NCBI GenBank assembly: GCA_047615545.1 | Contig: JBLHID010000001.1 | Location: 8,586 to 72,585 of the forward strand | Origin: Polaribacter sp. | GTDB taxonomy: Bacteria > Pseudomonadota > Gammaproteobacteria > GCA-001735895 | Reading direction: 5' to 3' | DNA length: 64,000 bases | Part shown: in pieces, positions 32,645-63,953 of the stretch | Layout of the letters: every line of letters starts with the position of its first letter | Position numbering within the stretch: the first letter of the stretch is position 1 | Translations under genes and position numbers: made by a program | The notes under the pieces: model-generated | What the model saw: only the letters and a program-made list of their open reading frames with translations | The model's database searches: none | What the model was told of the DNA's origin: nothing

Positions 32645-34438
32645 TTACCCATGACTGCTGCGCTTCGACAACCAGCTCCCAGAATAAGTCTCATAGTAAC
32701 TCCGTAACCATAGGTCCATCCCCTCTGCAGGTTGTGGATTCGCAAAGTAATAGCCTTGCAGGTTATCGCATCCAAGACCTTTAAGCGTATCAAGTTGCTT
32801 TTCGGTTTCGACACCCTCGGCAACGACCCGCAGGCCAAGATTGTGACCCAGGTCAATAATCGACTTAACGATCAAAAAATTGTTTTTGTGTTCTAGTTTT
32901 TTTACAAAAGACTGGTCAATCTTGACCTCTTTAACGGGGAGTTGATGAAGATAGGTTAACGAGGAATATCCGGTACCAAAATCATCGATCGATAATTCGA
33001 TACCATTTTCATTTAGATTTCGCAGCTGTGCCTCCACTCGAGGAGAATTGCCCATTAGATGATTTTCCGTTACCTCCATTACCAGACCGCCCTGAGGTAT
33101 ATCCCAACTTTGCATTAGATTTACGATCCACTCGGGGTCCAATACATTACTATCGCTAAAGTCATCCGGAGAGACATTGACGGATACCTTGTTTATCACA
33201 CCCTCTCTAATCCAGCTTGAACATTGCTCCATTGCCGTTGCTATAACCCATTGAGTGATCAATGAAACCATATTGTTTTTCTCAGCAAAAGGAATGAAGT
33301 CGATAGGCGATAGCACTCTACTATCCGGGTGGTGCCATCGCACTAGCGCTTCAAGCCCAGGTGCTGATTGATGATTTGAGTCGACTTGAGGTTGATAGTA
33401 AATTTCCAACTGGTTTTCTTTTATCGCCGTAATCAAATCGGCCCGCAAATTTATAGTTAAGTCGTTCTTGGGGTCAATGGATTCGTCATAAACTGTAAAT
33501 GCTCTTCGTGAACGTTTGGCATCATACATTGCGATATCAGCCTTTCGTAACAAATCATCGACCGAGCTACCGTGAAGTGGATATTCCGCAATTCCAAAAC
33601 TACCGCTAACGACTACCTTGTGTTCTTCGTATTCTACTGGTAAATCACAAGCTTCAATTAAATTCTCGATAACCATGGCCGCTTCTACACTGCTGGTTTG
33701 ATTCAAAATTAAACAAAATTCATCACCACCGATACGAGCCAGTGTGTCACTGTTTCTCAAGCGCGCCATCATCCTGTTGGACACTTCCTGTAACACTAGG
33801 TCACCAGCTCGATGTCCCAGCGTATCGTTAATGGCTTTGAAATCATTTAGATCCAAGATCGCTAATACAAAATTGCCCTTGGCACGTTCCGCTAATGCAA
33901 TATAGCGTTTGCCACAATCCAGCAATAGTTTGCGGTTCGCAAGCCCCGTCAATGGATCGTGCAAGGAATCATAGGCATGTTGTTGGTCGGCGTCAGCAAG
34001 CTGAGTGGTGAGCGCCTCCAGCTCAGTATTGCGCCGAGCCAGTAAAATATTTTGTTGCCATAATTTTTTAAAAATCTTCACCTTGCCGATCAAAATCTCT
34101 TCATTTAATGGTTTGCAAATATAATCGACTGCACCGGCCCGATAGCCCTTGATTGAAAAATGTTCTTCTTTATTGATCGCAGTCAGAAAAATAATTGGTA
34201 TATTTGCGGAGCTTTTATTCGATAACATTAAGTCAGCAGTTTCGAAGCCATCCATGTCCGGCATATTTACATCGAGTAGCACCAGGAAGAAGTCATGCTT
34301 CATAACCTGAACCAAAGCACCTTTACCCGAATCCACCTCTATAATTTCAATTTCCAGGGATGCTAGCACTCTGCGTAAGGCATACAGATTATTGGGCTTA
34401 TCATCGACAATCAGTATTTTTGGGAGAGGTTCATTCAT
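32645..34438 (-). CDS. response regulator with REC-GGDEF-EAL domains (c-di-GMP turnover)
   Basis: 597 aa with an N-terminal receiver (ILIVDDKPNNLYAL..DVNMPDMDG), a GGDEF motif (RIGGDEFCLIL) and EAL motifs (EALVRW, DDFGTGYSSL). Confidence 0.88.
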   Translation of the reverse strand: MNEPLPKILIVDDKPNNLYALRRVLASLEIEIIEVDSGKGALVQVMKHDFFLVLLDVNMPDMDGFETADLMLSNKSSANIPIIFLTAINKEEHFSIKGYRAGAVDYICKPLNEEILIGKVKIFKKLWQQNILLARRNTELEALTTQLADADQQHAYDSLHDPLTGLANRKLLLDCGKRYIALAERAKGNFVLAILDLNDFKAINDTLGHRAGDLVLQEVSNRMMARLRNSDTLARIGGDEFCLILNQTSSVEAAMVIENLIEACDLPVEYEEHKVVVSGSFGIAEYPLHGSSVDDLLRKADIAMYDAKRSRRAFTVYDESIDPKNDLTINLRADLITAIKENQLEIYYQPQVDSNHQSAPGLEALVRWHHPDSRVLSPIDFIPFAEKNNMVSLITQWVIATAMEQCSSWIREGVINKVSVNVSPDDFSDSNVLDPEWIVNLMQSWDIPQGGLVMEVTENHLMGNSPRVEAQLRNLNENGIELSIDDFGTGYSSLTYLHQLPVKEVKIDQSFVKKLEHKNNFLIVKSIIDLGHNLGLRVVAEGVETEKQLDTLKGLGCDNLQGYYFANPQPAEGMDLWLRSYYETYSGSWLSKRSSHG

Positions 34439-34701
34439 TTTGTAAATCCATTAGCATTATTAGCAACGTTAATTCTTCCATAGATAAAGGTTCTGTCCAC
34501 CCAAATTGCTTCGATAGCTGCTCGTGGCATCACTTTTGCCTCTGCAACGCAGTCAAATAACACGTTTATAGACGACTGCGAATAGTTGACCCAATCGTTG
34601 AGAGAAAGATTGAATATTTTATCACTTTCGACCCGCAGATATCGACATTGCCGTACTTGCCTAGGATGCTCGCAGCTGCCGAGAAACTGGTGGCGGTCTT
34701 T

Positions 34702-35526
34702 TCATACATGCGCTAACCGCCGATATATTCGTTCTTTGTGCTCAAAGCTTTCGTACTCATGATCAGAATAGGTTAGCGATTCTTGGGTGCCCAAGACTAA
34801 AAAGCCACGGGGCACCAAGCTGTCGGAAAATAACTTCAATGTTCGATTTTGAAGGTTACGACCAAAATAGATCATCACATTGCGACAGATCACTACATTC
34901 ATTTCGGCAAAAACACCATCGCGGATAAGATTGTGATTGGCGAAGGTGATGCGATCGCGTAGCGTTTTCACCATGCGTGCAGAGTCGTAACCTGTTTGAT
35001 AATAATCCGAAAATGAGGATTTACCACCTGATTTCATATAGTTATCAGTATAAGTCTTCATCAGGTTTATCGGGAAAATTGCCTTTTTAGCCGATGACAG
35101 AGCCTTGTTATTGTAGTCCGTCGCATAAATACGGCAACGATCCAGCAGGCCTTCTTCTTGCAACAAGATTGCCATCGAATAAACTTCTGCTCCGGTAGCG
35201 CAACCCGCATGCCAGATATTGATTCGGGAATAGGTACGCAATTTTGGAATAACCGTTTCGCGAATCTTTTTAAAGACCCAAGGGTCACGGAACATTTCCG
35301 TGACCGTGACCGACATGTCGGTCAAAAAGCTTTCAAAAAAAGCTTGATCATGCAAAACCAACGGAATCATTTCAGATACCCGCTCTAATCCAGTAATAGC
35401 CAGACGTTGCGAAACGCGACGATTTAACGAGGCACGCGCATAATCACGAAAATCGTAACCCCAGCGTTTGAAAATAGCCTCCAGAAACAAGTCGACTTCC
35501 AGTTCATTGATATTGGGTTTTTCCAC
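34702..35526 (-). CDS. CheR-type SAM-dependent protein-glutamate methyltransferase (stand-alone)
   Basis: 274 aa with a CheR N-terminal helical domain and a SAM-binding core (IWHAGCATGAEVYSMAILL; NVVICRNVMIYF). No CheA, CheW, CheB or MCP gene is present in the cassette. Confidence 0.8.
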   Translation of the reverse strand: MEKPNINELEVDLFLEAIFKRWGYDFRDYARASLNRRVSQRLAITGLERVSEMIPLVLHDQAFFESFLTDMSVTVTEMFRDPWVFKKIRETVIPKLRTYSRINIWHAGCATGAEVYSMAILLQEEGLLDRCRIYATDYNNKALSSAKKAIFPINLMKTYTDNYMKSGGKSSFSDYYQTGYDSARMVKTLRDRITFANHNLIRDGVFAEMNVVICRNVMIYFGRNLQNRTLKLFSDSLVPRGFLVLGTQESLTYSDHEYESFEHKERIYRRLAHV

Positions 35527-35529
35527 GAT

Positions 35530-38500
35530 CTAGCGGCCAAATTCAGTACGTTCGAACAACCATACGCGCAGCATCGACTTTAATATCTCGACATTGATCG
35601 GCTTGGTTAAATATTCCGACGCACCAGCATCAATACATAAGGCGCGGTCTTCTGGCATTGCTTTGGCAGTCAATGCGATCAACGGCAACTCAGCAAACTG
35701 GCTGATGCCTCGAATTTTCCGCATGGCTTCGTTGCCATCCATAACGGGCATCATGATATCCATCAACACCAATTCTATGCTCGGATTTTCATTTAGTTTA
35801 TCGAGGGCAACTTGACCGTTTTCTGCCATCAAAACATTAAGACCTAGCTGCTGTAGCTCTCTCGACAGGGCATAGACATTGCGCATATCGTCGTCAACTA
35901 AAAGAATCGTTCTGTCTCGGAACAGCATATCATCGTTGTGTAACATTCCGACTTCCTGTTTTTCCTCGCGTTGACCGTTTACCACGCCGCTGTGCAAAAA
36001 CATTGCAACTTCATCAATTAAACGCTCGGGGGACTCGGCACCCTTGACAATAACACTGCCGGTAAACCCTAGGAGACGTACAGTCTCTTCATCGGTCAAC
36101 TCACGTCCGCTATAGATAATAATTGGTGGCAATGCGTTTTTGCTATTTTTGGACACTTTTCTCAGGATATCAAATCCACTCATGTCAGGCAGTTCCAAGT
36201 CCAAGATAACGCAATCAAACTGCTTCGACTTTATATGCCTACAAGCATCTTTGCCATTACTGGCGAATGTGAACTCGATAGTAGAACCGCGAAACAGCGA
36301 AGCGATCGCTTGTTGGTTGCCCTGATCGTCTTCGACCACAAGGATGTGGCGTATATTTTCCAATGATAGACGGTTGATATCGCCAAGGGCCGATTCAATA
36401 TCTTCTCTGGTCACGGGTTTTTGCAGATAGCCGGTGATGCCAGATGCGATTACCTCACCTTTTCGATCAAAACCAGAAATAACATGTATCGGAACACTAG
36501 CGGTCCTAGCCTGGTACTTCAGTTGCTTAATAACCTCTAGGCCGTCGATATCGGGCAATCCCATATCAAGCAATATCCCACATAGTTGGAATTCCGTCGT
36601 TAAATACAACCCGCTGCGGCCATCGGCGGCAGCCAGACATTTGTAGCCACTCGAACGCACCGTGTCCATCAACGTCTGGGCGAAGTCGCTGTCATCTTCA
36701 ATGATCAGTATGGTCTGGTCGCCTTCCTCTATTTGATTTCGGTCATCGCTAATATACTCGGTTGGTCGAAGTTCGACAGCTAAAGCCGTTAGCCCTGGTC
36801 CTGCAAAAGATGTCTGTTGCTGCGCTGCAGGGTTGATTTTTTTTGCTTCACTTCGGTCTTCTTCATTTAAGGGCAAATAAAGACTGAAACAGCTACCTTC
36901 ACCCTCTTTACTCTCTACCAAAATTTCCCCACCTAGTAAATGTGTGAGTTCACGGGATATCGAGAGGCCCAAGCCCGTTCCACCATGTTTGCGACTAGTA
37001 GTACCGTCCACCTGCTGAAAAGCGTCGAATACCAGTTGCTGTTTATCCATTGGAATGCCGATGCCGGTGTCGATTACCGAAAATACCAACAGGTCCTTAT
37101 TTTTCAGTTCGTTTAAACCAGGGTCCATATTAGAGTTATGCGGGGATATTCGTAAAGTTACCTTGCCGGTCTCGGTGAATTTGAACGCGTTCGAGAGAAA
37201 ATTTCTCAATATCTGTTCTAGACGCTGCCCATCCGTATTGATCGATTCGGGTGCTGTGTCGGTAATATCCACCTCGAATTTCAGATTCTTCGAAGTTGCA
37301 ACTGGATTGAACAACCGTTGCAAACCGTCGCTAAAGGGTTCAAGTTCTACCAACTCATCATTAACCATCAACATGCCGGCCTCCACCTTGGACAAGTCCA
37401 TGATGTCATTGATCAGGTTCAGTAAATCCTGACCGCCTTCGTAGATAATTTTGGCATCTTCAATTTGCTCATCCTGTAAGTTGCCGAGGCGGTTGGACAT
37501 CAAACTTTTTGACAGTAATAACATGCTGTTTAACGGGGTGCGAAGTTCGTGTGACATATTGGCCAGGAACTGTGATTTATAGGTGTTGATCACTTTAAGT
37601 TCATGGGCCTGTTCTTCAAGCTCGATCTGAACCTGCTTGAACAATACATTGCTAGCTTCGATTTCTTTTTTCTGCTTTTGCAGCGATTCGGTCTTTTCCT
37701 CCATCTCTTCATTGGAACTTCGCAATTCTTCCTGTTGAGTCTGCAATTCCTCAGATTGAGTCTGGGACTCTTCGAGAAGATTACTAACCCTTTCCTGATT
37801 TTGGCCGGCGCGCACCGCTATTGCGATGGCACCTGACACTAATTCGACAAACTCTATCTGCAAGTCGGTGAATGGCTCGAAGGATCCTATTTCGATTGCA
37901 CCGATGACCCGGTCTTCGAGCCTGAGCGGTACTATCATCAAGTGACGCGGTACTGCTCCACCAAGCCCCGAATTGATCTCGATATAATCATCTGGCAACT
38001 CTGATACCATAATGGTATTGGCGTCTTGAATAGCCTGACCCACCGAGCCTTCTCCGGCCTTAATCGTCCTCAGGGCATGTTTGTGGTGGGAATAGGCGTA
38101 ACTACCTGTCCGGGTGTAGGCATCGTTGTCATTGGCTAAATAAATAACACCGACCGAAGCCCCCACATATTTCGCCAAACCGATGATTATACTGTTACTT
38201 AGCTCATCTAATGCTCGACCCGCACCCATGACATCCGCCATCTCTGCCTGACCATTTTTGGTCCACTGAAAGCGTTCGTTTAGCTCAGCGGAACTCATGA
38301 TGACGTTAAGCACGTTGCGAATCATAAAAAAGGAAAAGATCCCGCCTAAAATAGTACTTAGCACCAATGTAGTGAGAATCAAAAAAAGGTTCTCGTCGAA
38401 CACCTGGTTACCCAGCTCTCGGTTAGTGTCCATCGATAGTTTATTCGCAGTAACCACTTCGCTGATAATTACTTCGGCCTGATCCGCTAATTCTCGGCCT

Positions 38501-40221
38501 TTACCTGAGGCAAGATCGAATGCGAGCTGATTGCCATTTTGCCTCGAGAGCATTCGAACCTTTTCATTGATGGCCAGAAAATTTAACCAGGATTGCTCAA
38601 AGCGGTTCAGAGAGTTCAATTCATTGCCAATGGACAGGAGTTTTAATTGTTTGATCTTTTCTCCCAAGTTAGATTTGAATAACGCTAACGAATCAGAAAA
38701 ACTGTCCATGCCTTCCTGTGTTTTTTCGAGGATCAGACTCTTCTCAGCCCGGTGTATTGCCAACATGTCCTGGATCATGCGCGAAACGATCAACTTTCGT
38801 TCGTTTGCCAGCGCCAGCTGATTTACGCTCTCAATGTTTAGTGCGACATTTCCCTTGACGGTAATATCCAGTTGCAGTTCAGCCTGATCCGCTAATAGGC
38901 GTCCTTCATTTGTGGCTAGATCAAAAGCACGTCGGTTTCCATTTTCCCGAGAAAATTTACGTACCTGGATGTTGTGTGCGCGGTAATTCTTATAAGCTAG
39001 TTTCGATTTTTGGAACGAATTCATATTTTCGCTGTTTGTTTCGAGTGCCGCCTGCAATCGGTCGAAGCGCCTATCGATTTCGATTTCCAGATCCAACATT
39101 ATCTGCATGTATGTGTCTTTGTCAGTCTGGGTTGGCGCCAGAATCAGGTTTTTTTCTGCGCGCTGATACTCCACTACATTGCGCAACAGCCGTGATGTCG
39201 ACTGAATAATCTGGCCGGAGTTCAGCAGTTTGAAAACATCGGTAGAGATATCATCGCTCTGAAAGCGCTCTTCGTGAAATTTACTTATTTTGAATAGCGC
39301 GGTTTCAAGAGTTTCGAAAGATTGTCGCGCATCGCCGATAGACAAGTTGAGTGCGCGAACATTGGAGTTAAGCAGGGTTAATTCTAGCACCTGTTGGTAG
39401 ACATCGCTCCACTGGTTCCATGTTCGGGAAAACTTGTCTAGATCAGAACTACCGTCTGCGGTCGTCAGTTCTCTTAAAGCCCTTCGATTGGAGAACAAAT
39501 CATCTTGTAAGACTTCAATGCGGTTCGCGTACTGACGCATATCCTCGACGTTGGTTGATAGAATAATATTTCTTTCTGCGCGCAGTATTAACAGCATATC
39601 ATTTTGAATCTGGGTGCCGTAAACAATTTTTAGTTGAGCACCAGCCGCCCGTTTCTCGTAACTTTCCGCTGTCTGGTCGGCCACGGCAACAATACCACGC
39701 AGCTCTGTTTCGGCGTTATCGAAGGCGCTGCGCGCCGCCGTTGCAGATAGCTCTCTGGCTTGTACATTTGAGTTCAGTCGTGCATATTCGCGGACCTTGT
39801 TGTCAATAGCCATGTACTCGGATATTTTTTGACGAAACTTGATAATCTTGTCGCTGTTCTTCTTATCTACTAGTGTTTGAATTAAATTCACGCGTTCAAT
39901 TAAATCGAGATGTGTTTGTTGGATAAAGACTGCATATTCATCCATTTCAGCTTGGGTTTGAGCAGTAATAATATTTTTTTCGGCCCGCGTTATCTTCAAT
40001 AAATCTTGCTGAATTTTTTCACCAAGCTGTAATTTATTCGCAGAAATATCCACGATGTCGTTCACATTTTTTTTAAGAGCCTCTAACGCGTTAATACCCA
40101 CGATTCCGACACCCAATATGGCAATAATCAGTAAAGCACTGATTATTGCCAATTTAATACCAATGGCTCGTTGCGATTCAGTCATAATTTTGATCCCTTT
40201 AATATCACCGCTGGTTATCAA
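35530..40221 (-). CDS. giant hybrid sensor histidine kinase: TM, four tandem helical sensor repeats, TM, GAF, coiled coil, HisKA, HATPase, three REC domains
   Basis: 1563 aa. Four ~120-aa periplasmic repeats each carry an R-A-E-(K/R)-(N/S)-(I/L)-IL motif. The H-box is MSHELRTPLNSM and the G-box is GGTGLGLSISRELTHLLGGEI. The three receivers carry ILIIEDD..LDMGLPDIDG, ILVVEDD..LDLELPDMSG and ILLVDDD..MDIMMPVMDG. Confidence 0.85.
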   Translation of the reverse strand: MITSGDIKGIKIMTESQRAIGIKLAIISALLIIAILGVGIVGINALEALKKNVNDIVDISANKLQLGEKIQQDLLKITRAEKNIITAQTQAEMDEYAVFIQQTHLDLIERVNLIQTLVDKKNSDKIIKFRQKISEYMAIDNKVREYARLNSNVQARELSATAARSAFDNAETELRGIVAVADQTAESYEKRAAGAQLKIVYGTQIQNDMLLILRAERNIILSTNVEDMRQYANRIEVLQDDLFSNRRALRELTTADGSSDLDKFSRTWNQWSDVYQQVLELTLLNSNVRALNLSIGDARQSFETLETALFKISKFHEERFQSDDISTDVFKLLNSGQIIQSTSRLLRNVVEYQRAEKNLILAPTQTDKDTYMQIMLDLEIEIDRRFDRLQAALETNSENMNSFQKSKLAYKNYRAHNIQVRKFSRENGNRRAFDLATNEGRLLADQAELQLDITVKGNVALNIESVNQLALANERKLIVSRMIQDMLAIHRAEKSLILEKTQEGMDSFSDSLALFKSNLGEKIKQLKLLSIGNELNSLNRFEQSWLNFLAINEKVRMLSRQNGNQLAFDLASGKGRELADQAEVIISEVVTANKLSMDTNRELGNQVFDENLFLILTTLVLSTILGGIFSFFMIRNVLNVIMSSAELNERFQWTKNGQAEMADVMGAGRALDELSNSIIIGLAKYVGASVGVIYLANDNDAYTRTGSYAYSHHKHALRTIKAGEGSVGQAIQDANTIMVSELPDDYIEINSGLGGAVPRHLMIVPLRLEDRVIGAIEIGSFEPFTDLQIEFVELVSGAIAIAVRAGQNQERVSNLLEESQTQSEELQTQQEELRSSNEEMEEKTESLQKQKKEIEASNVLFKQVQIELEEQAHELKVINTYKSQFLANMSHELRTPLNSMLLLSKSLMSNRLGNLQDEQIEDAKIIYEGGQDLLNLINDIMDLSKVEAGMLMVNDELVELEPFSDGLQRLFNPVATSKNLKFEVDITDTAPESINTDGQRLEQILRNFLSNAFKFTETGKVTLRISPHNSNMDPGLNELKNKDLLVFSVIDTGIGIPMDKQQLVFDAFQQVDGTTSRKHGGTGLGLSISRELTHLLGGEILVESKEGEGSCFSLYLPLNEEDRSEAKKINPAAQQQTSFAGPGLTALAVELRPTEYISDDRNQIEEGDQTILIIEDDSDFAQTLMDTVRSSGYKCLAAADGRSGLYLTTEFQLCGILLDMGLPDIDGLEVIKQLKYQARTASVPIHVISGFDRKGEVIASGITGYLQKPVTREDIESALGDINRLSLENIRHILVVEDDQGNQQAIASLFRGSTIEFTFASNGKDACRHIKSKQFDCVILDLELPDMSGFDILRKVSKNSKNALPPIIIYSGRELTDEETVRLLGFTGSVIVKGAESPERLIDEVAMFLHSGVVNGQREEKQEVGMLHNDDMLFRDRTILLVDDDMRNVYALSRELQQLGLNVLMAENGQVALDKLNENPSIELVLMDIMMPVMDGNEAMRKIRGISQFAELPLIALTAKAMPEDRALCIDAGASEYLTKPINVEILKSMLRVWLFERTEFGR

Positions 40222-52677: not shown

Positions 52678-53859
52678 ATGAATGAAAAGATAGTCATCAC
52701 CGGTATTGCTCGTACACCATTAGGTGGATTCCAGGGTGCTCTGTCGGACGTGAGCGCACCTCAATTAGGTGCGATAGCGATAGCAGCTGCAGTAGCGCGT
52801 AGCCAACTGGCCAAGGACGCTATAGATGAAGTGATCATGGGTTGTGTGTTATCAGCAGGATTGGGTCAAGCTGCAGCGCGTCAGGCTAGCATTGGTGCCG
52901 GACTAGCGCTTTCCACCGGCGCAACCACCATAAATAAAATGTGTGGGTCAGGTATGAAAGCTGTAATGCTGGCGCATGACTTACTGCTCGGGGGTAGTAA
53001 TCGAATTATGGTCGCGGGTGGGTTAGAGAGCATGAGCAATGCGCCTTATCTATTGCCCAAGGCACGTGCTGGAATGCGCATGGGGCACAGCAATGTAATC
53101 GATCACATGTTCTTTGATGGGCTTGAAGATGCCTATGACAAGGGCTGTTTAATGGGGGTTTTTGCTGATAATACGGCTGATAAATATAGCTTTAGCCGAG
53201 AGCAGCAAGATAACTTCGCGATCACATCTCTTAAACGGGCACAGGCCGCAATAGAAAGCGGTGCTTTTGCAGACGAGATCTGTCCAGTCGTCGTAAAAAC
53301 TCGAAAGGGTGACGTAATCATTGACACCGACGAGCAGCCCTCGAAAGCCGATCTAGATAAAATACCTACTTTGCGCGCCGCTTTTCGCAGTGATGGCACT
53401 GTCACCGCTGCCAACTCAAGTTCTATCTCTGATGGTGCCGCTGCCCTGACACTGATGAGCCTAACCGAGGCCGATAATCGTAATGTTAAGCCGCTCGCTA
53501 TCATTCAAGGGCATAGTTCTTTCTCACATGAGCCCGCTTGGTTTACGACTGCACCGGTTGGCGCAATTAAAAATTTACTCAATAAATTAGGCTGGCAAGT
53601 TGATGAGGTCGATTTGTTCGAAATAAATGAAGCCTTCGCGGTTGTCACGATGTCAGCCATGCATGATCTCGGGCTGGATCACAATAAAGTCAATGTCAAT
53701 GGTGGTGCCTGCGCCCTGGGCCATCCTATTGGTGCTTCGGGTGCGCGTATACTGGTGACTTTGATAGCTGCATTACAACAAAGAGGTTTGAAGAAAGGTA
53801 TCGCAGCGCTCTGTATCGGTGGTGGCGAAGCGGTTGCGATCGCGGTTGAAATTATTTAG
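52678..53859 (+). CDS. acetyl-CoA C-acetyltransferase (thiolase II)
   Basis: 393 aa with the thiolase motifs: the acyl Cys in [32 protein letters not shown] and CIGGGEAVA. Confidence 0.9.
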
Positions 53860-53926
53860 TTAACACGATTAATATAATGCAGCCTAGTCAGTATCAGATT
53901 AGCTTATATGCCTTTGCCTTAATCAG

Positions 53927-54812
53927 TTAAAATTGTCGAAGTCGGCCGACGCGATGGTTTTCAAAATGAAGCGTTAAGCGTGCCTGTGGATGTGAAGATC
54001 GAGCTCGTTAACAAACTGGTCGATGCTGGTTTAAGGGTTGTCGAGTCGGGTAGTTTTGTGTTGCCCAATTGGGGCCTCAAATGGCTTCTAGCAGTGCGGT
54101 ATTTAAGTCGACCCAACAACGTCGCCAGTTTTCTTACCCGATTCCAGTACCGAATATGAAAGGCTCTGAGCCAGCATTAGAGGCTGGAGTGTCGGAAATT
54201 GCGATGTTCACCGCTGCCTCCGAAGTATCCACACAAAAAAACATTAATTGTTTGATCGAACAAAGCATCACGCGATATCAACAAGTGGTCAAAAAAGCAC
54301 AGGTTGAGACCATTAAGATCAGAGGTTATATCTCCTATGTTTTTGGTTGTCCCTATGAAAATAAAGTATCGAATGATATCGTAACCATTATTGTCCTGCG
54401 CCTTCAAGACCAAGGATTTTACGAAATATCACTCGGTGACACGATCGGGGACGGCACGCCTGCCAGCGCATTGGCGATGGTAGAAACGGTTGCCCAAAAA
54501 ATTGAAATAGAGCAACTAGCCGCTCACTTCCACGATACATACGGGCAGGGGCTGGCAAATATTTACGCGGTGCTGCAAGCCGGCATCGCCATCCTCGATA
54601 GTTCGATTAATAGTCTGGGCGGATGCCCTTACGCCAATGGTGCCAGTGGCAATGTCTCCACTGAAGACTTATTCTATACGCTCAATGGCATGCATATAGA
54701 TATGGATAAATTACTGATCGCGGGTGATTACATTAATCAATTCCTGGGTCGTCAATCAACCTCGAGAGTCGCACGGGCTCTTGGAAATCACACCACTTAT
54801 GAACAGGGGTAA
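53927..54812 (+). pseudogene. hydroxymethylglutaryl-CoA lyase, disrupted by loss of the start/N-terminus and a -1 frameshift near 54065
   Basis: Frame A (from 53927) gives KIVEVGRRDGFQNE...AGLRVVESGSFV. Frame B (the 54069 ORF) continues PQMASS..KNINC..RGYISYVFGCPYE..GDTIGDGTP..HFHDTYGQGLANI..GGCPYA. A TAA lies two codons upstream of KIVEVG with no start codon in between. Confidence 0.7.
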
Positions 54813-54818
54813 TTAGTA

Positions 54819-55493
54819 ATGCCGACAACACTTGCGTTTGATATTTACGGTACCCTAATTGACACTCAGGGCATCAACCAAAAGCTATTCGATATCATCG
54901 GTGACCAGGCCACAGAATTTTCCCATCGGTGGCGGGAGAAACAATTGGAGTACTCGTTTCGACGAGGACTCATGCGCCGCTATGAAAATTTTGCCACCTG
55001 TACTGTTCAAGCACTTGACTACACCGATAGATTGTTCAGCACCAACATCAGTATTACCGATAAACAGGCTTTGATGCATGCTTACAAAACACTACCACCA
55101 TTTGCCGATGTCACTCGGAGCTTAATTAGGGCAGAAAAAGAGGGGTTTCGGCTATTTGCATTCTCCAATGGTAGCGAGAGCGCCGTCGAGGAACTGCTGA
55201 AAAATGCTGGGATAAGGCAGTATTTCGAAGGCGTCATTAGCGTAGACAGTCTACAAACATTTAAGCCGAATCCTGATGTCTACCAATATTTTCTCAACAA
55301 AACAGACAGTCAACCTGGGACAAGTTGGTTGGTCTCCAGCAATCCTTTCGATGTTATTGGCGCGATATCGGCTGGAATGAAGGCGGCCTGGTTACAGCGC
55401 GACCCAAAAGCCTTGTTTGACCCATGGGAAGTCAACCCAACATTGACACTCAAGCATCTATCTCAGTTGCCAGAACTAATATTGAAAAAATAA
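54819..55493 (+). CDS. HAD-superfamily hydrolase (haloacid dehalogenase type II-like)
   Basis: 224 aa with HAD motif I (AFDIYGTLID) and motifs II-IV (FSNGS, K, WLVSSNPFDV). Confidence 0.75.
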   Translation: MPTTLAFDIYGTLIDTQGINQKLFDIIGDQATEFSHRWREKQLEYSFRRGLMRRYENFATCTVQALDYTDRLFSTNISITDKQALMHAYKTLPPFADVTRSLIRAEKEGFRLFAFSNGSESAVEELLKNAGIRQYFEGVISVDSLQTFKPNPDVYQYFLNKTDSQPGTSWLVSSNPFDVIGAISAGMKAAWLQRDPKALFDPWEVNPTLTLKHLSQLPELILKK

Positions 55494-55516
55494 GCGAGCG
55501 GAGGCTCCCTTGTTTT

Positions 55517-56776
55517 CTATTTCCACGAAAGATCATATACCTTTGGAAATGGCCCTTTTTTATAGTTTATTGCTGATGACGCTGTAAGATCATCACGCAA
55601 CATCACTTGGCGCACCATTTCTGGAATCATTGCCATGCCCACATACTTACCCAACCAATCATGCGAGGCAAAACCATAATTGAAATTATGATACCAATTA
55701 CGATCTGCATCAAATTCTTCTGGATGGTCGTAGGCATAGGTATCAAACATCGCCGACTATGTGAGGGTTAATACATCAGTGCCTTTTGGAATGTCAGTTT
55801 CGCGATCAGTGCCCTTAGCAATCGTATAATTTTCTGATAGTTGACGAAACATATATGGACTGATGGGCACGAAGCGTAAAGCTTCCCACACCATGCCATC
55901 TATCTCTACCGTATCTTCTTTAGCTGATGCTGCCTTTGCTCTAGCTAACAGTTCAGGCTGATCAATGAAAAACTGAATTACTTGAGCTACTGCTTGCGAG
56001 GTTGTTTCCACCGAACCAATTAGCAAACCACCGCCATTAACGCCGATACGCGCCAGCGGAAAATCTACTTGCACGGCAAAAGCACTACGCAGCATACGTT
56101 TGACGATATCGTCTTTCTAAATAATAGGATCTTTTTTGAAAATTGCACGCAGTAGATTTATCACTTTCAACACCGTGCCAAATATCCGGTCTTTGATCTT
56201 AACCGGCAGTATTTTTCGCACCATTAATACCGTAATATAATCAACCAATTCCACCGAACACTTCCCATGTTCAGCAACAATATGGTCAAAAGTTTTCTGT
56301 GAATTCAGATCAAGCGGCTGATTGTGGAAAGTATTGTATTGATTCCAATAAGACCACTTAAGTAGTTTTTTTGGATCAATGCCATCAAGGCCAAAATATT
56401 CTCGCACCATGATGGCAGGCACCATACGGCAAAAAATATTAACGATTTCAATGCTTCCCCCCGCATCATCTAAAATCTTTTTGGCGGAGTCTTGAATGCC
56501 CTGCCTAACATGAGGAATATCGTCACGATTAAGCATCCCTTGCATAATCTACTTTTCGCGATAATGAAGCGCATCATCATCGTGAGCCATCAAATAACCT
56601 TCATCGGTAGCAGTAACGCCCATTTTCGGCTTATACAAATTAACCGTGAAAATACTGTGCATTTGTAAGGAATCGCGAATGTCCGTGAACAATGCCAACA
56701 AGGTGCATTCAGGGGTGACCAGTACCGGCCGCTCTTCTCGTAGCTGTTTAAAAAATGGTAATGGCTCGGTCTGCAT
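55517..56776 (-). pseudogene. cytochrome P450 interrupted by three in-frame TAG codons (single frame, no frameshift)
   Basis: Four consecutive minus-strand ORFs share one frame and are separated by TAG at 56549-51, 56117-19 and 55757-59. P450 landmarks are present: the N-terminus PFFKQLREERPVLV, I-helix GGLLIGSVETT, EALR, and a heme loop YGFASHDWLG in which Trp occupies the Cys position. Confidence 0.7.
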
Positions 56777-56858
56777 CCATTTTTGAACTAGCGGATACTT
56801 ATCAGCATCTGCGGCGCATAATATTCTGCAAGATAGTTTTAAGCCATTTCCCTATGCT

Positions 56859-58964
56859 CTAAAGAGTTTTAATATATTCAATCAAATCCCAACGCTGGGC
56901 TTCCGTCAGCTCGGGTAATTGAGTCCCGTTCATTTGTGGTGTTTTACCGCCACCATATTCATGACCACCATTCCTATTGCCGTCACGGTCAAGATTGTTC
57001 AGTGTTTTAAAGGTAAAGCCCTTATAACCTTCTGAACGGAAACCCACTTTCACTGGATCAAACTCACGGCTACCTACCATAAACTCTGTAGGGCGGCGTT
57101 CTTGAGGTTGCAACAAATCATATAAAGTTGGTACTGAACCATTATGCAAATATGGGGCAGTTGCCCAAATACCATTTAGTGAACGTCCCTTGTAGGCCAG
57201 CAAAGAGTTATAAGGTTGCGACGTAGTGTCGGCTTTATAATTTCCACTTTTGATAGTGTTAGGAATAGTATTATCTAAAAGTGATGATCCAATATTATAG
57301 ATGCGATCAAACCAACGACGTAAGAACATTTTGTCGCTGTCAGGCGTTGCAATAACACCTTTGGTGGCCGATGTTAATATTTGAATCACTGGCGCATCTT
57401 CTTCTATTAACAAGTCTCCCACATCCACGCTTTGTACCGTATGCTTAAGATTGCCTGACTTGCCACTGTAAGAAACGCCATTCATGGCCGCTGCAGGGTC
57501 TGTGCCGATAAATTCTAACGCCGACATTTTCGCGATAACAATCCGATCCAAATTATCTCTCGCAATAACTTCGTGACAAGATTGGCAATATTGAGCGTAA
57601 ATAACTTGACCTCGTTCGGCTTTTTTGTCACCAATCGTGCCCAGAATTTCTTCAGGCCACATAGGAGATTGCAAGCTTTTCAAGTGTGATTCTAAACGTC
57701 GCAAGTTGGTCAGATCAATAGATGATTTAAAATCCACCTGCTCGTCTAGGTGTTTTTGCCCTGTTAATGTTGCGGACAAACTAAAACCATCAGTTTTATG
57801 TGAACTCCAGTCAAGTATGCCAAACACACCAATGACTTCGCCTGTGTTACGTCCCAATGGGCCTAAACCCGCATTGCTTGCAACGCCATTCCATTGAACA
57901 TAGTCAGACTGTGCAACATCCCACAAAAATGGATAGCTTACTGGGGCGTTAGCTTCATTGAAAACTTGTTTCACAACACGCAAAGTATTACGTTGGTTTA
58001 AACTAGGGTACCCCGCTTCTTTTGATCCTAAACGTTCAATAATCAAACCAAATTGTTTATCGACAATAATATTTTCACCTATTTTACTGAGCACTTTATC
58101 TATCTGCTCATTCGTTAGGATCCTTTTGCCAATAGGCGACAATGCGAGCTGCATCGCGTTTTTAAGCTGGGGTTTATTAATCATGTGCTGTAGAACACGA
58201 TTGTAAATTCGCCCAAAAGCATCTAGCCGAGCATAGCCATACTTGACCTTACTATGATTCACTGTGTTATATAGACGTCTCGTTTTTGTCCATTCCTCTA
58301 AGCTCGAGATGACCTTATCCGCTGAACTAAAATCATTATCCAAGGCAATTACTTTATCAATAAAACGTTGTTTCTTAGCCTCATTATCCAAAGTGCCCTG
58401 CATAGATTTTTCTAAATCATGTAAGAAACTAACCATATCCGCCATAGCGGGGCCACCATCAATGCGAATAGCGTTACCCTGGTAATTTATTTGTGCGGTA
58501 TGACAGGCAGCACAGGTATAGCCTACGTAATCTTTACTCTGATAAGTTTCTTTAACAAAGCCCACGGGAAAACCATCAGGATTAAAAAAGGTTGGTTTTT
58601 GTGGCAAATATCGGTATTTATCAACATTCGTGTTAGAGATAAAACGTTCTGTTGATTCTTCTTGTTCCAGTGCAACTAAGAAATCATAGGGCAGTAAGGC
58701 AGAACCCTGAGTAGTATTGTAATACCACAAACTATCAGATTCCGACCAGCCTTGTTTTAGATAAACTGGGGTTGAATAGCTTTCTCCAAATGCGCCATTA
58801 TCAATTGCGATCGCACCACGATTCGGGTCATTATCCCAACCTTGGTAGACTTTGCCCATAGCCAAAGAAATTAGAATTAATAATGAAATGACAGCTAACA
58901 AACGCCATTTATGTTGAAGTAGGAAAAAAATAGCGGCTAAAATGCGCTGAAACACAGTGGACAT
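56859..58964 (-). CDS. large di-heme cytochrome c peroxidase-family protein (701 aa, 2x CXXCH)
   Basis: It has a signal/TM N-terminus, the heme-binding sites CAACH and CQSCH, and a CCP/MauG-type distal motif APYLHNGSVPTLYDLL. It is about twice the length of canonical CcpA. Confidence 0.7.
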   Translation of the reverse strand: MSTVFQRILAAIFFLLQHKWRLLAVISLLILISLAMGKVYQGWDNDPNRGAIAIDNGAFGESYSTPVYLKQGWSESDSLWYYNTTQGSALLPYDFLVALEQEESTERFISNTNVDKYRYLPQKPTFFNPDGFPVGFVKETYQSKDYVGYTCAACHTAQINYQGNAIRIDGGPAMADMVSFLHDLEKSMQGTLDNEAKKQRFIDKVIALDNDFSSADKVISSLEEWTKTRRLYNTVNHSKVKYGYARLDAFGRIYNRVLQHMINKPQLKNAMQLALSPIGKRILTNEQIDKVLSKIGENIIVDKQFGLIIERLGSKEAGYPSLNQRNTLRVVKQVFNEANAPVSYPFLWDVAQSDYVQWNGVASNAGLGPLGRNTGEVIGVFGILDWSSHKTDGFSLSATLTGQKHLDEQVDFKSSIDLTNLRRLESHLKSLQSPMWPEEILGTIGDKKAERGQVIYAQYCQSCHEVIARDNLDRIVIAKMSALEFIGTDPAAAMNGVSYSGKSGNLKHTVQSVDVGDLLIEEDAPVIQILTSATKGVIATPDSDKMFLRRWFDRIYNIGSSLLDNTIPNTIKSGNYKADTTSQPYNSLLAYKGRSLNGIWATAPYLHNGSVPTLYDLLQPQERRPTEFMVGSREFDPVKVGFRSEGYKGFTFKTLNNLDRDGNRNGGHEYGGGKTPQMNGTQLPELTEAQRWDLIEYIKTL

Positions 58965-59163
58965 GGCAATTATCCGTTTGACATTAATGATTTTTTATAG
59001 AACTTATTTAATTTTTACCGTAATCTACACTACTGTGTGGTGAAAGTCTCGTCAATTTGGAGTGGGCTCAGTAAAAGGGGTCGGATGACTGAAAGTTCGA
59101 TCAGTTGCTGAAATTTAATCCCTCCGTCCCCTTTTATTTGTTGCTATGCTCTGACATTCATTT

Positions 59164-59532
59164 TTGTGGCTCAATATTCCCATGATTCCAACCTTAAAAA
59201 CTCAATTGTCGTCATTCGGTTTCTTACGTCTAGGCTTAATCGGTCTGGCTATATTGTCTATGCTTATACCTATCGTTGAGTGGGTAGCCATCCTGTTGAT
59301 AGGGGAGGTTGCAGAGCGCTCAGTGCTAGGGTTAAGTGCCCAGTTAATAGCGCCAGTCATGGCACCCGTGCTAATTATCGTTCTTTTGCTTGATATCATT
59401 ATGGCTAAAGTGCGGGCAGCTGATGACCCGACCGGTGCAGGCGTTCTTTACCAAGCAATCAGTAGAATTGGGACCATATTGATTATTGTTATGCTGCTTT
59501 TCTGGGTGCCGTTTTTTATTGCCTTCATTTAG
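59164..59532 (+). CDS. hypothetical small integral membrane protein
   Basis: 122 aa with three or four hydrophobic helices and no recognisable motif. It is divergent from the peroxidase gene. Confidence 0.4.
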   Translation: MWLNIPMIPTLKTQLSSFGFLRLGLIGLAILSMLIPIVEWVAILLIGEVAERSVLGLSAQLIAPVMAPVLIIVLLLDIIMAKVRAADDPTGAGVLYQAISRIGTILIIVMLLFWVPFFIAFI

Positions 59533-59566
59533 GGCATTCTCAAAAAATCGAAGTAGGGAAAATAGC

Positions 59567-60058
59567 ATGCAATATAGATACATTGAATCACCCGTAGGAA
59601 AACTACTTATAGCAGGTGACGAACACGGACTGGCAATGATTGGGTTCTCAAAAGGCAAAGCAGTCGTTGTGCCCGAAACGCGGTGGCAAATGAATGATGC
59701 TTGCTTTGAAGATGCTGAGAGACAACTGAATCAATACTTTGCGGGCGCTCGAACAACATTTGATTTAAAGTTGGCACCAACTGGTACTGCGTTTCAATTA
59801 GCTGTTCTTAATGCACTGCAAGACATTCCCCAGGGCGAAACCCGAACCTACCTTCAAATAGCACAACAAATAAAACGACCGAAAGCAGTCAGAGCGGTTG
59901 GCGCAGCGAATGCACGAAACCCCTTGCCAATTGTCATTCCCTGTCACCGTGTTATTGGTGCCGATGGCAGTTTGACTGGGTTTTCAGGTGGATTAGAAGC
60001 CAAGCTGTTTCTTTTAGAGCTGGAAGGAGTAAAAGTAAAGACACTCGCTACAAAGTAG
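59567..60058 (+). CDS. ogt: methylated-DNA--protein-cysteine methyltransferase
   Basis: The ATG at 59567 starts MQYRYIESPVGKLLIAGDEHGL, and the active-site motif IPCHRVIGADGSLTGFSGG is present. The ORF-track start at 59486 overlaps the previous gene. Confidence 0.88.
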   Translation: MQYRYIESPVGKLLIAGDEHGLAMIGFSKGKAVVVPETRWQMNDACFEDAERQLNQYFAGARTTFDLKLAPTGTAFQLAVLNALQDIPQGETRTYLQIAQQIKRPKAVRAVGAANARNPLPIVIPCHRVIGADGSLTGFSGGLEAKLFLLELEGVKVKTLATK

Positions 60059-60078: not shown

Positions 60079-60585
60079 CTATCGTTTCTTCAAACCAATT
60101 TGTCGACCGATCCAGTCAGGTTTTTCGGCCACTTCTGCTTGTTTAAGGGCGGCTTGAGCTAATTCTGGCATTTCAATCGTACGAGAATCTCGTGTGCTGT
60201 AATGCAACACCATAAACTCTCCGGTGGCGCAGAGTTTGCCGTCAACTATCATTTTATGAGCAAACCAAATTTTCTTTGCTTCAGATCCTAGAATGATTGA
60301 TTCGACTTCAATCATAGCGGGAGAGCGCACGTCATCGAGATAACGTAGGTGTGTTTCAACGGTATACAGCGCACAGCCTGTTTCTTCAAAGTAATCAACG
60401 CCGATATTAAACTGGTCTTGCAACTTCCATGTGGTGTTCGTGAAAGGCACCAAATAATAGGCTTCGTTAAGATGGCCGTAAGCATCTAACCAGGAATCTT
60501 GTAGAGGTTCTGAATGTAGTTTGAAATTAGTCATGGTTAGCATGGACGCCGAGTTGATCGTAAACGCAGTATAGATGGAAAACAA
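60079..60585 (-). CDS. hotdog-fold acyl-CoA thioesterase (4HBT/YbgC-like)
   Basis: 168 aa whose thioesterase-superfamily pattern matches 4HBT-type enzymes. Confidence 0.65.
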   Translation of the reverse strand: MFSIYTAFTINSASMLTMTNFKLHSEPLQDSWLDAYGHLNEAYYLVPFTNTTWKLQDQFNIGVDYFEETGCALYTVETHLRYLDDVRSPAMIEVESIILGSEAKKIWFAHKMIVDGKLCATGEFMVLHYSTRDSRTIEMPELAQAALKQAEVAEKPDWIGRQIGLKKR

Positions 60586-63120: not shown

Positions 63121-63473
63121 CTAAATTACAAGTACAGTTGATCCGGTTGTATTGCTGGCTTCTAAATCTTGATGGGCTTTTGCGCAATCGGCAAGCGCAA
63201 AGCTCTGATTGATATGTATAGACACATCACCATTACGCACCACTTCAAACAAACGGTCAGCACCTTCTTCAAATAACGCTCGGGTAGCTATATGGGTGCC
63301 TAGAGTAGGGCGAGTTACATATAATGATCCTTTGGGTGCGAGTATGCCGGGGCTGAATGGATCAACCGCGCCGCTCGCATTGCCATAAGTGGCTAAAACA
63401 CCAAAAGGTTGCAGGCAATCGAGGGACGCTGCAAAGGTCGCATTACCGATCGAGTCGTATGCTGCTGCGCCAC
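63121..63473 (-). pseudogene. 5'-truncated quinone oxidoreductase (Qor/zeta-crystallin) C-terminal fragment
   Basis: The minus-strand translation ..YDSIGNATFAASLDCLQPFGVLATYGNASG..KGSLYVTRPTLGTHIATRA..CAKAHQDLEASNTTGSTVLVI* matches a Qor C-terminus. Homology stops abruptly at ~63473, where IS91-like sequence begins. Confidence 0.65.
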
Positions 63474-63479
63474 ACCACT

Positions 63480-63953
63480 ACCAAACATCCGTTACCAGCT
63501 AAAGACTCCCTACCGTGATGGTACAACCCATGCCATATTCGAACTGTTGGACTTCAAATCAAAACTGGCGTCTCCTGTACCGAAACCGAAGGTCAATCTA
63601 ACCCGGTTTCATGGTGTGTTCGCACCCAACAGCAAACACCGAATTCTAGTCACACCAGCCAGGCGGGGCAAGGGCGGGCAAAAAGTCAGTGCTCAGGACA
63701 AAACGCCAGTTGAGGGCCGCACAGCCATGACCTGGGCACAACGGTTAAAGAGGGGATTCACATTGATGTTGAAGCCTGCACTCACTGTGGGGGTCCCGTA
63801 AAGGTCATCGCCGATACGTCGGAACGCTGTATCGAAAATCAGCAGATCATTGACAAGGTTCCGTCCCATCTTAAGAAAAAGGACGGGTTACCCTCACATC
63901 CTGATGTCCTACCTGAAACCAGAGCCCCTCCGCAAACCAGCTTGCTTGGCTGA
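63480..63953 (+). mobile_element. IS91-family (rolling-circle) transposase C-terminal remnant, frameshifted
   Basis: The sequence ..IRYQLKTPYRDGTTHAIFELLDF..KVNLTRFHGVFAPNSKHRILVTP..MTWAQRLKR continues after a +1 shift near 63760 as HIDVEACTHCGGPVKVIA..ILDxxPSHL..RAPPQ. This is the conserved tail of IS91/ISCR transposases; the N-terminal ~300 aa are missing. Confidence 0.7.

Follow-up and report, generated by a model that had tools for sequence, protein, structure and literature searches.

Bacterial unitary pseudogenes, disabled by nonsense or frameshift changes and left to neutral decay, are well known from host-associated as well as free-living species and are catalogued by NCBI PGAP. The locus described here, a cytochrome P450 gene within a 64-kb window (the whole stretch of DNA that was analysed), is of this kind: intact orthologs are found in relatives, several independent disabling lesions are present, the non-synonymous rate is raised, and secondary lesions are polymorphic among strains. 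Nothing essential sets it apart from such pseudogenes, and what it offers in addition is that metagenome contigs allow the older lesions to be told from the younger ones. Compared with the P450 superfamily (prokaryotic class I-like), the likeness consists of a fold-level sequence match, with the EXXR motif (as EALR) and the Cys pocket FxxGxxxCxG present in the intact orthologs. On the other hand, the gene belongs to a very divergent subfamily without a characterised member, whose usual partner is a di-haem cytochrome c peroxidase-like gene, and the copy in the window has neither the Cys ligand nor an open frame.

Extent and family of the P450 pseudogene

The whole pseudogene occupies 55517..56847 on the minus strand and comprises 1331 nt, following a 1-nt deletion, where intact orthologs have 443 codons. 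Its conceptual translation scores 45.8 bits against Pfam PF00067, for a cutoff (gathering score) of 22.8, and the intact homologs carry precomputed hits to the same family; its NCBIfam hits fall well short of the respective cutoffs. In the protein collection, 1783 homologs were recovered, and the best among the proteins listed have 443 aa and 75-84% identity, with the top matches from Candidatus Endobugula MAGs, gammaproteobacterium IMCC1989 and Eionea. The best solved match is PDB 9ia1 (E=1.4e-12).

The homologs begin 24 residues before the start at 56776 that had been taken in an earlier sequence-only reading of this DNA, with MTKNYLAEYDAAA.ADKYPLVQKW. The ancestral ATG is retained at 56845..56847 (minus strand), 71 nt upstream of that start and 11 nt past the TAG stop of the upstream gene, and aligns with the ATG of six orthologs. 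The normal terminal stop at 55517..55519 (minus strand) is TAG here and TAA in most relatives. Between these ends the window copy holds no uninterrupted frame of orthologous length, owing to a TAA codon, the 1-nt deletion and three TAG codons, and gene callers return fragments of 75, 142 and 192 or 112 aa. The locus should be annotated as a pseudogene rather than as three or four small ORFs; beyond annotation it matters little, albeit as a tidy small case of stepwise pseudogene decay that is visible in metagenomes.

Lesions, ancestral codons and their distribution among strains

To define the lesions we aligned the nucleotide sequence of the window with six intact orthologs (L002, L014, L001, L003, L004 and L066), each of which has a 1332-nt open P450 frame located 3' of a RoxA-like gene. 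The closest of these, L002 from a Candidatus Endobugula sp. MAG, shows about 90% protein identity in the best tblastn segment and 81.6% nucleotide identity to the window over a hit of about 3.5 kb that covers both genes. The alignment contains one gap column in the whole gene and none across 56776-55517, the region of the TAG codons, and each TAG therefore replaces a sense codon. In this respect the sequence-only reading, which had described one minus-strand frame interrupted by three in-frame TAG codons that stand for sense codons and not for indels, was borne out. It had also held that the gene was free of frameshifts and carried exactly three stops, which does not apply to the gene in its entirety, as both a fourth stop and a frameshift fall in the 24 codons that it missed.

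Population variation was assessed from 15 contigs (L077-L091), recovered through exact look-ups of the 701-aa neighbouring protein and of the 142-aa P450 fragment. At least 13 JGI and Logan samples contributed these contigs, whose gapless alignments with the window show 99.7-100% identity. All lesions lie on the minus strand. The TAA at codon 3 (56839..56841) replaces AAA or AAG (Lys) of relatives through an A>T change and is present in 15/15 population contigs, and the 1-nt deletion in codon 11 (between 56816 and 56815; GC-GCC against GCTGCC) causes a frameshift that is common to all of them; codon 10, in the same initial stretch, has changed from Asp to Tyr (D10Y). The TAG at codon 100 (56549..56551) arose from TCG by C>A and is likewise found in 15/15 contigs, whereas the TAG at codon 244 (56117..56119), derived from TTG (Leu) by T>A, is present in 11 of the 14 contigs that could be read at this position, with TTG in the other 3. 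The TAG at codon 364 (55757..55759), a C>T change of CAG, occurs in the window alone, with CAG in 8/8 other contigs that reach the site. Finally, codon 398 (55655..55657) is TGG, encoding Trp, in place of the TGT or TGC of relatives, a T>G change seen in 7 of 8 contigs, while L083 keeps TGT and hence the Cys.

The replaced residues differ between sites. In an alignment with 13 homologs the columns of codons 100 and 364 are Ser and Gln throughout (each in at least 98% of homologs), whereas that of codon 244 is variable with Leu, Met, Pro and Phe. For the two conserved sites the ancestral codons, TCG and CAG, could be read from L002 and the other relatives; at codon 244 the orthologs left the polarity unset, and it is the population contigs that give TTG>TAG. 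The Trp of the heme-binding segment YGFASHDWLG sits, congruent with the same reading, in the column of the haem-thiolate ligand. This column is Cys in at least 98% of 117 homologs, and the placement held on re-alignment, including with 9ia1, where the haem-ligand Cys of the GxHxCxG loop aligns with the homolog Cys at the Trp position of the window.

Aggregated over the whole gene, the damage amounts to four nonsense codons, one frameshift and the Cys>Trp exchange, each separated by a single mutation from the codon of the orthologs or of the population. The view of a recent inactivation by point mutation, taken in the sequence-only reading, was sound in substance but needed correction in its details, namely the ancestral codons and the TAA and frameshift that lie outside the interval it covered.

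The distribution among contigs also gives the lesions an order. The TAA, the deletion and the TAG at codon 100 are the older ones, while the TAG at codon 244 and the loss of the Cys ligand arose later and continue to segregate; since TAG alternates with TTG, TGG with TGT and the third TAG with CAG among the contigs, these lesions post-date inactivation. The third TAG is possibly private to the window, or else a base-calling error in the source assembly, and the 112-aa and 77-aa ORF fragments that it creates are on record nowhere beyond the window in our look-ups. The population haplotypes (53600-60000 compared with L077-L091) do not form a clean nested series, and four-gamete violations were detected between 56329 and 56118 as well as between the codon-244 site (56118) and the Cys/Trp site (55655). 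Such violations imply recombination, recurrent mutation or a chimeric metagenome consensus, and the mosaic haplotypes suggest recombination among co-occurring strains or chimerism of the consensus. Exact-pattern scans of metagenome contigs yielded no further haplotypes.

Congruent with the loss of the open frame, selection on the P450 is relaxed in the lineage of the window. Polarised substitutions number N34:S29 on the window branch against N5:S20 on the sister branch leading to L002 (Fisher p=0.004), and of the 152 columns with at least 98% conservation across 117 homologs, 7 are altered in the window, compared with a mean of 0.76 per homolog. The 1.33-kb pseudogene harbours 11 segregating sites (9 replacement or nonsense and 2 synonymous), while the 2.1-kb RoxA-like gene next to it has 6 (3:3), a difference in density of about three-fold (p=0.04). 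From the N:S counts about 37 substitutions are attributable to the neutral phase, and with 4.0-4.5% of random single-base changes yielding a stop, about 1.6 stops would be expected. The four observed are compatible with neutral decay, being a mild, non-significant excess over this expectation (Poisson P(>=4) about 0.08).

Decay of the P450 gene and its rival explanations

Could the stops be errors of base calling or consensus, with the real gene intact? The third TAG invites this suspicion, being confined to the window (55759) and required for ORF fragments that are recorded nowhere else. The TAA, the deletion and the first TAG are however not assembly errors, as they recur in 15 independent JGI and Logan contigs from at least 13 different samples, and the second TAG and the TGG are backed by 11 and 7 contigs, respectively. 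Moreover, the stops go together with the relaxed N:S ratio and the changes at conserved residues. For five of the six lesions an artefact is already refuted, and as an account of the locus it is very improbable. Translation of the TAG codons is a different matter, in that a suppressor tRNA or pyrrolysine would permit a full-length protein, and the internal stops in 56776-55517 are indeed all TAG and all in frame. Nevertheless, the resemblance to amber recoding goes no further than in-frame TAG codons within a conserved gene. The residues replaced are Ser, Leu and Gln, with no coherent position; two of the three TAG sites alternate with sense codons; a TAA and a frameshift precede the TAG codons; and the haem ligand is gone. 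TAG is furthermore an ordinary stop here, terminating 17 of 49 long ORFs in the window (35%), among them def (1639-2139), as the sequence-only reading had noted, and the adjacent RoxA-like gene, whose C-terminus IEYIKTL is the same as that of the L003 ortholog and whose orthologs end in TAG in five relatives and in TAA in two. A single tRNA, Lys-UUU, occurs in the 64-kb window. Neither is the preponderance of TAG telling: of the stops that lie one substitution away from the ortholog sequence, 37-38% are TAG, so that at least three TAG among four stops have a probability of about 0.15, and once the TAA is counted among them, the impression that all stops are TAG is unremarkable. Because three different residues are replaced, a TAA and a frameshift are present, the haem ligand is lost and TAG is a real stop, we set aside the read-through that had been floated as an exotic option; stop usage, the mixture of replaced residues and the polymorphism with sense codons rule out recoding as far as one window allows, leaving it a vanishingly small probability.

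A burst of mutation aimed at the P450 gene, by a mutagen or a cytosine deaminase, would be in keeping with six disabling or active-site lesions within 1.3 kb and with an SNP density about three times that of the neighbour, and the sequence-only reading had considered a mutagen- or deaminase-like origin with G-to-A changes from TGG. On the spectrum we reject such a signature. The lesions are a mixture of A>T, C>A, T>A, C>T, T>G and a deletion, with transversions in 4/5 of the point lesions, a lone C>T (the third TAG) and no G>A; the TAG codons descend from TCG, TTG and CAG, and it is the Trp that came from TGT. The substitutions on the window branch are similarly broad in spectrum, with A>G and T>C in front. 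Thus, with mixed and mostly transversional changes, neither a deaminase nor a single mutagen is supported. The lesions also differ in age, some being present in all contigs and others polymorphic, while the high SNP density is what neutral sequence beside a constrained gene should display, and we regard a targeted burst as extremely unlikely. A more plausible, yet still unlikely, alternative is that selection favoured the inactivation, for instance where its product did harm or imposed a cost in a new niche. Every strain sampled carries the first-hit lesions, the P450 seems degraded or truncated in L075 as well, with stops in L065 and L069, and the partner gene is intact in both the window and L075. 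However, drift or hitch-hiking would equally lead to presence in every contig of a closely related population, the P450 is lost in just 2-3 of 75 species, and stops acquired after the first knockout tell nothing about selection.

We are accordingly left in little doubt that the P450 is an ordinary unitary pseudogene in progressive decay, killed by point mutations and a one-base deletion. The host lineage is a marine gammaproteobacterium within the Candidatus Endobugula / IMCC1989 group, represented by metagenomes only, in which the P450 was presumably at the outset the second gene of a cassette, 3' of the di-haem cytochrome c peroxidase-like (RoxA-like) gene. Inactivation may have come about through any one of the TAA at codon 3, the 1-nt deletion at codon 11 and the TCG>TAG change at codon 100, in any order. 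Freed from selection, the dead gene has then drifted and gained about 30 missense changes, with the later lesions, TTG>TAG at codon 244 and TGT>TGG at Cys398, still segregating, and CAG>TAG at codon 364 appearing in the window only. Any function of the P450 protein would by now be gone, and TAG is decoded as stop. We infer that the loss was neutral or tolerated.

The RoxA-like partner gene and the surroundings of the locus

Directly upstream, at 56859..58964 on the minus strand, lies an intact gene of the di-haem cytochrome c peroxidase family (RoxA-like, 701 aa), which ends in TAG. It scores 609.6 bits against NCBIfam NF040606 (cutoff 150), is matched by the Pfam family RoxA-like_Cyt-c too, and its translation contains two CXXCH haem c motifs, CAACH and CQSCH. 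As it scores well short of the cutoffs of the RoxA, RoxB and RoxC equivalog models, it is not an ortholog of the rubber oxygenases. Its N:S ratio of 63:74 on the window branch, not significantly different from 30:50 on the sister branch (p=0.26), gives no evident sign of relaxation, and the gene is probably still functional.

The arrangement of a RoxA-like gene followed by the P450, adjacent and co-oriented, was found at 52 of 75 species loci, and two more species have the pair in another arrangement. The cassette ranges over Gammaproteobacteria, Alphaproteobacteria, Bacteroidota and Bryobacterales, and a literature search gave neither a description of the cluster nor a characterised member. 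Synteny with relatives is not conserved beyond the two genes, and the flanks are therefore uninformative. The P450 is disrupted elsewhere as well. It has two stops and a frameshift in L065 (9977-11274), where the RoxA-like gene is absent within 10 kb, and one stop in L069 (9974-11314). In L075 (9983-10372), from Candidatus Endobugula sertula AB1-4, the ATG is lost and several conserved residues are changed, with homology recognisable over about 112 codons up to the contig end and the RoxA-like gene open. Thus, loss of this P450 recurs occasionally. Tentatively, and at somewhat less than even odds in our judgement, the RoxA-like gene and the P450 may constitute a widespread uncharacterised two-gene module, of which the window and probably Ca. 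E. sertula would be natural P450 knockouts with an intact and apparently constrained peroxidase-like gene. If so, the function of the peroxidase-like protein needs no P450 and the module can be lost piecemeal. The locus in any case flags a conserved, unstudied cassette of a di-haem peroxidase-like gene and a P450 in marine and soil bacteria.

We also considered a pseudogene-rich symbiont genome as the setting, and rejected it. About 83% of the window is covered by ORFs of at least 150 aa, and the overlapping ORF pairs at TatB/TatC, GlpD/ABC, TolB/Pal and Ogt are separate intact genes. Decay is confined to the last 10 kb or so, with the P450, an HMG-CoA lyase gene and an IS91 fragment. Apart from these, the window is densely packed with intact genes, so the genome is not undergoing massive erosion; according to a 2026 preprint, pseudogenes are not abundant in the Ca. 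E. sertula genome either.

The HMG-CoA lyase pseudogene (53909-54812, plus strand) is located 1 kb from the P450. It retains an ATG at 53909, followed by a TAA at codon 5 (53921-53923). The N-terminal stretch VKIVEVG.RDG.QNE and the remainder are read in different frames, with what looks like a 1-nt deletion near 54070 (PNWG|PQMA), and against the HMGL-like profile the N-terminal fragment matches positions 2-44 and the main ORF 68-245. Considering that the same 243-aa call is made in the population contigs, the lesion is common to the population. A 130-aa ORF at 63409-63801 (plus strand), which matches just the last 55 or so positions of the Y2_Tnp (IS91-family) profile, looks like a transposase remnant at the window edge. 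A 168-aa ORF at 60079-60585 (minus strand) aligns with just the C-terminal third of carnitine 3-dehydrogenase (342-494 of 495) and could be either a stand-alone thioesterase-like domain protein or the remnant of a longer gene.

Regarding the organism, proteins identical to those of the window are held at NCBI in MAGs labelled 'Polaribacter sp.' (MFT5224326.1, on a 74-kb contig) and 'Flavobacteriales bacterium'. Among named organisms, however, the closest relatives of TolB, the P450 and the RoxA-like gene all belong to Gammaproteobacteria, in the case of the P450 to Ca. Endobugula and IMCC1989. The GC content is about 45%. The contigs filed under these two names are probably mis-binned. Elsewhere in the window, at 32645-40221 on the minus strand, a signalling cluster is encoded that comprises a 1563-aa hybrid sensor kinase (with 4HB_MCP, GAF, HisKA/HATPase and three receiver stretches), a CheR methyltransferase and a receiver-GGDEF-EAL protein, all seemingly intact.
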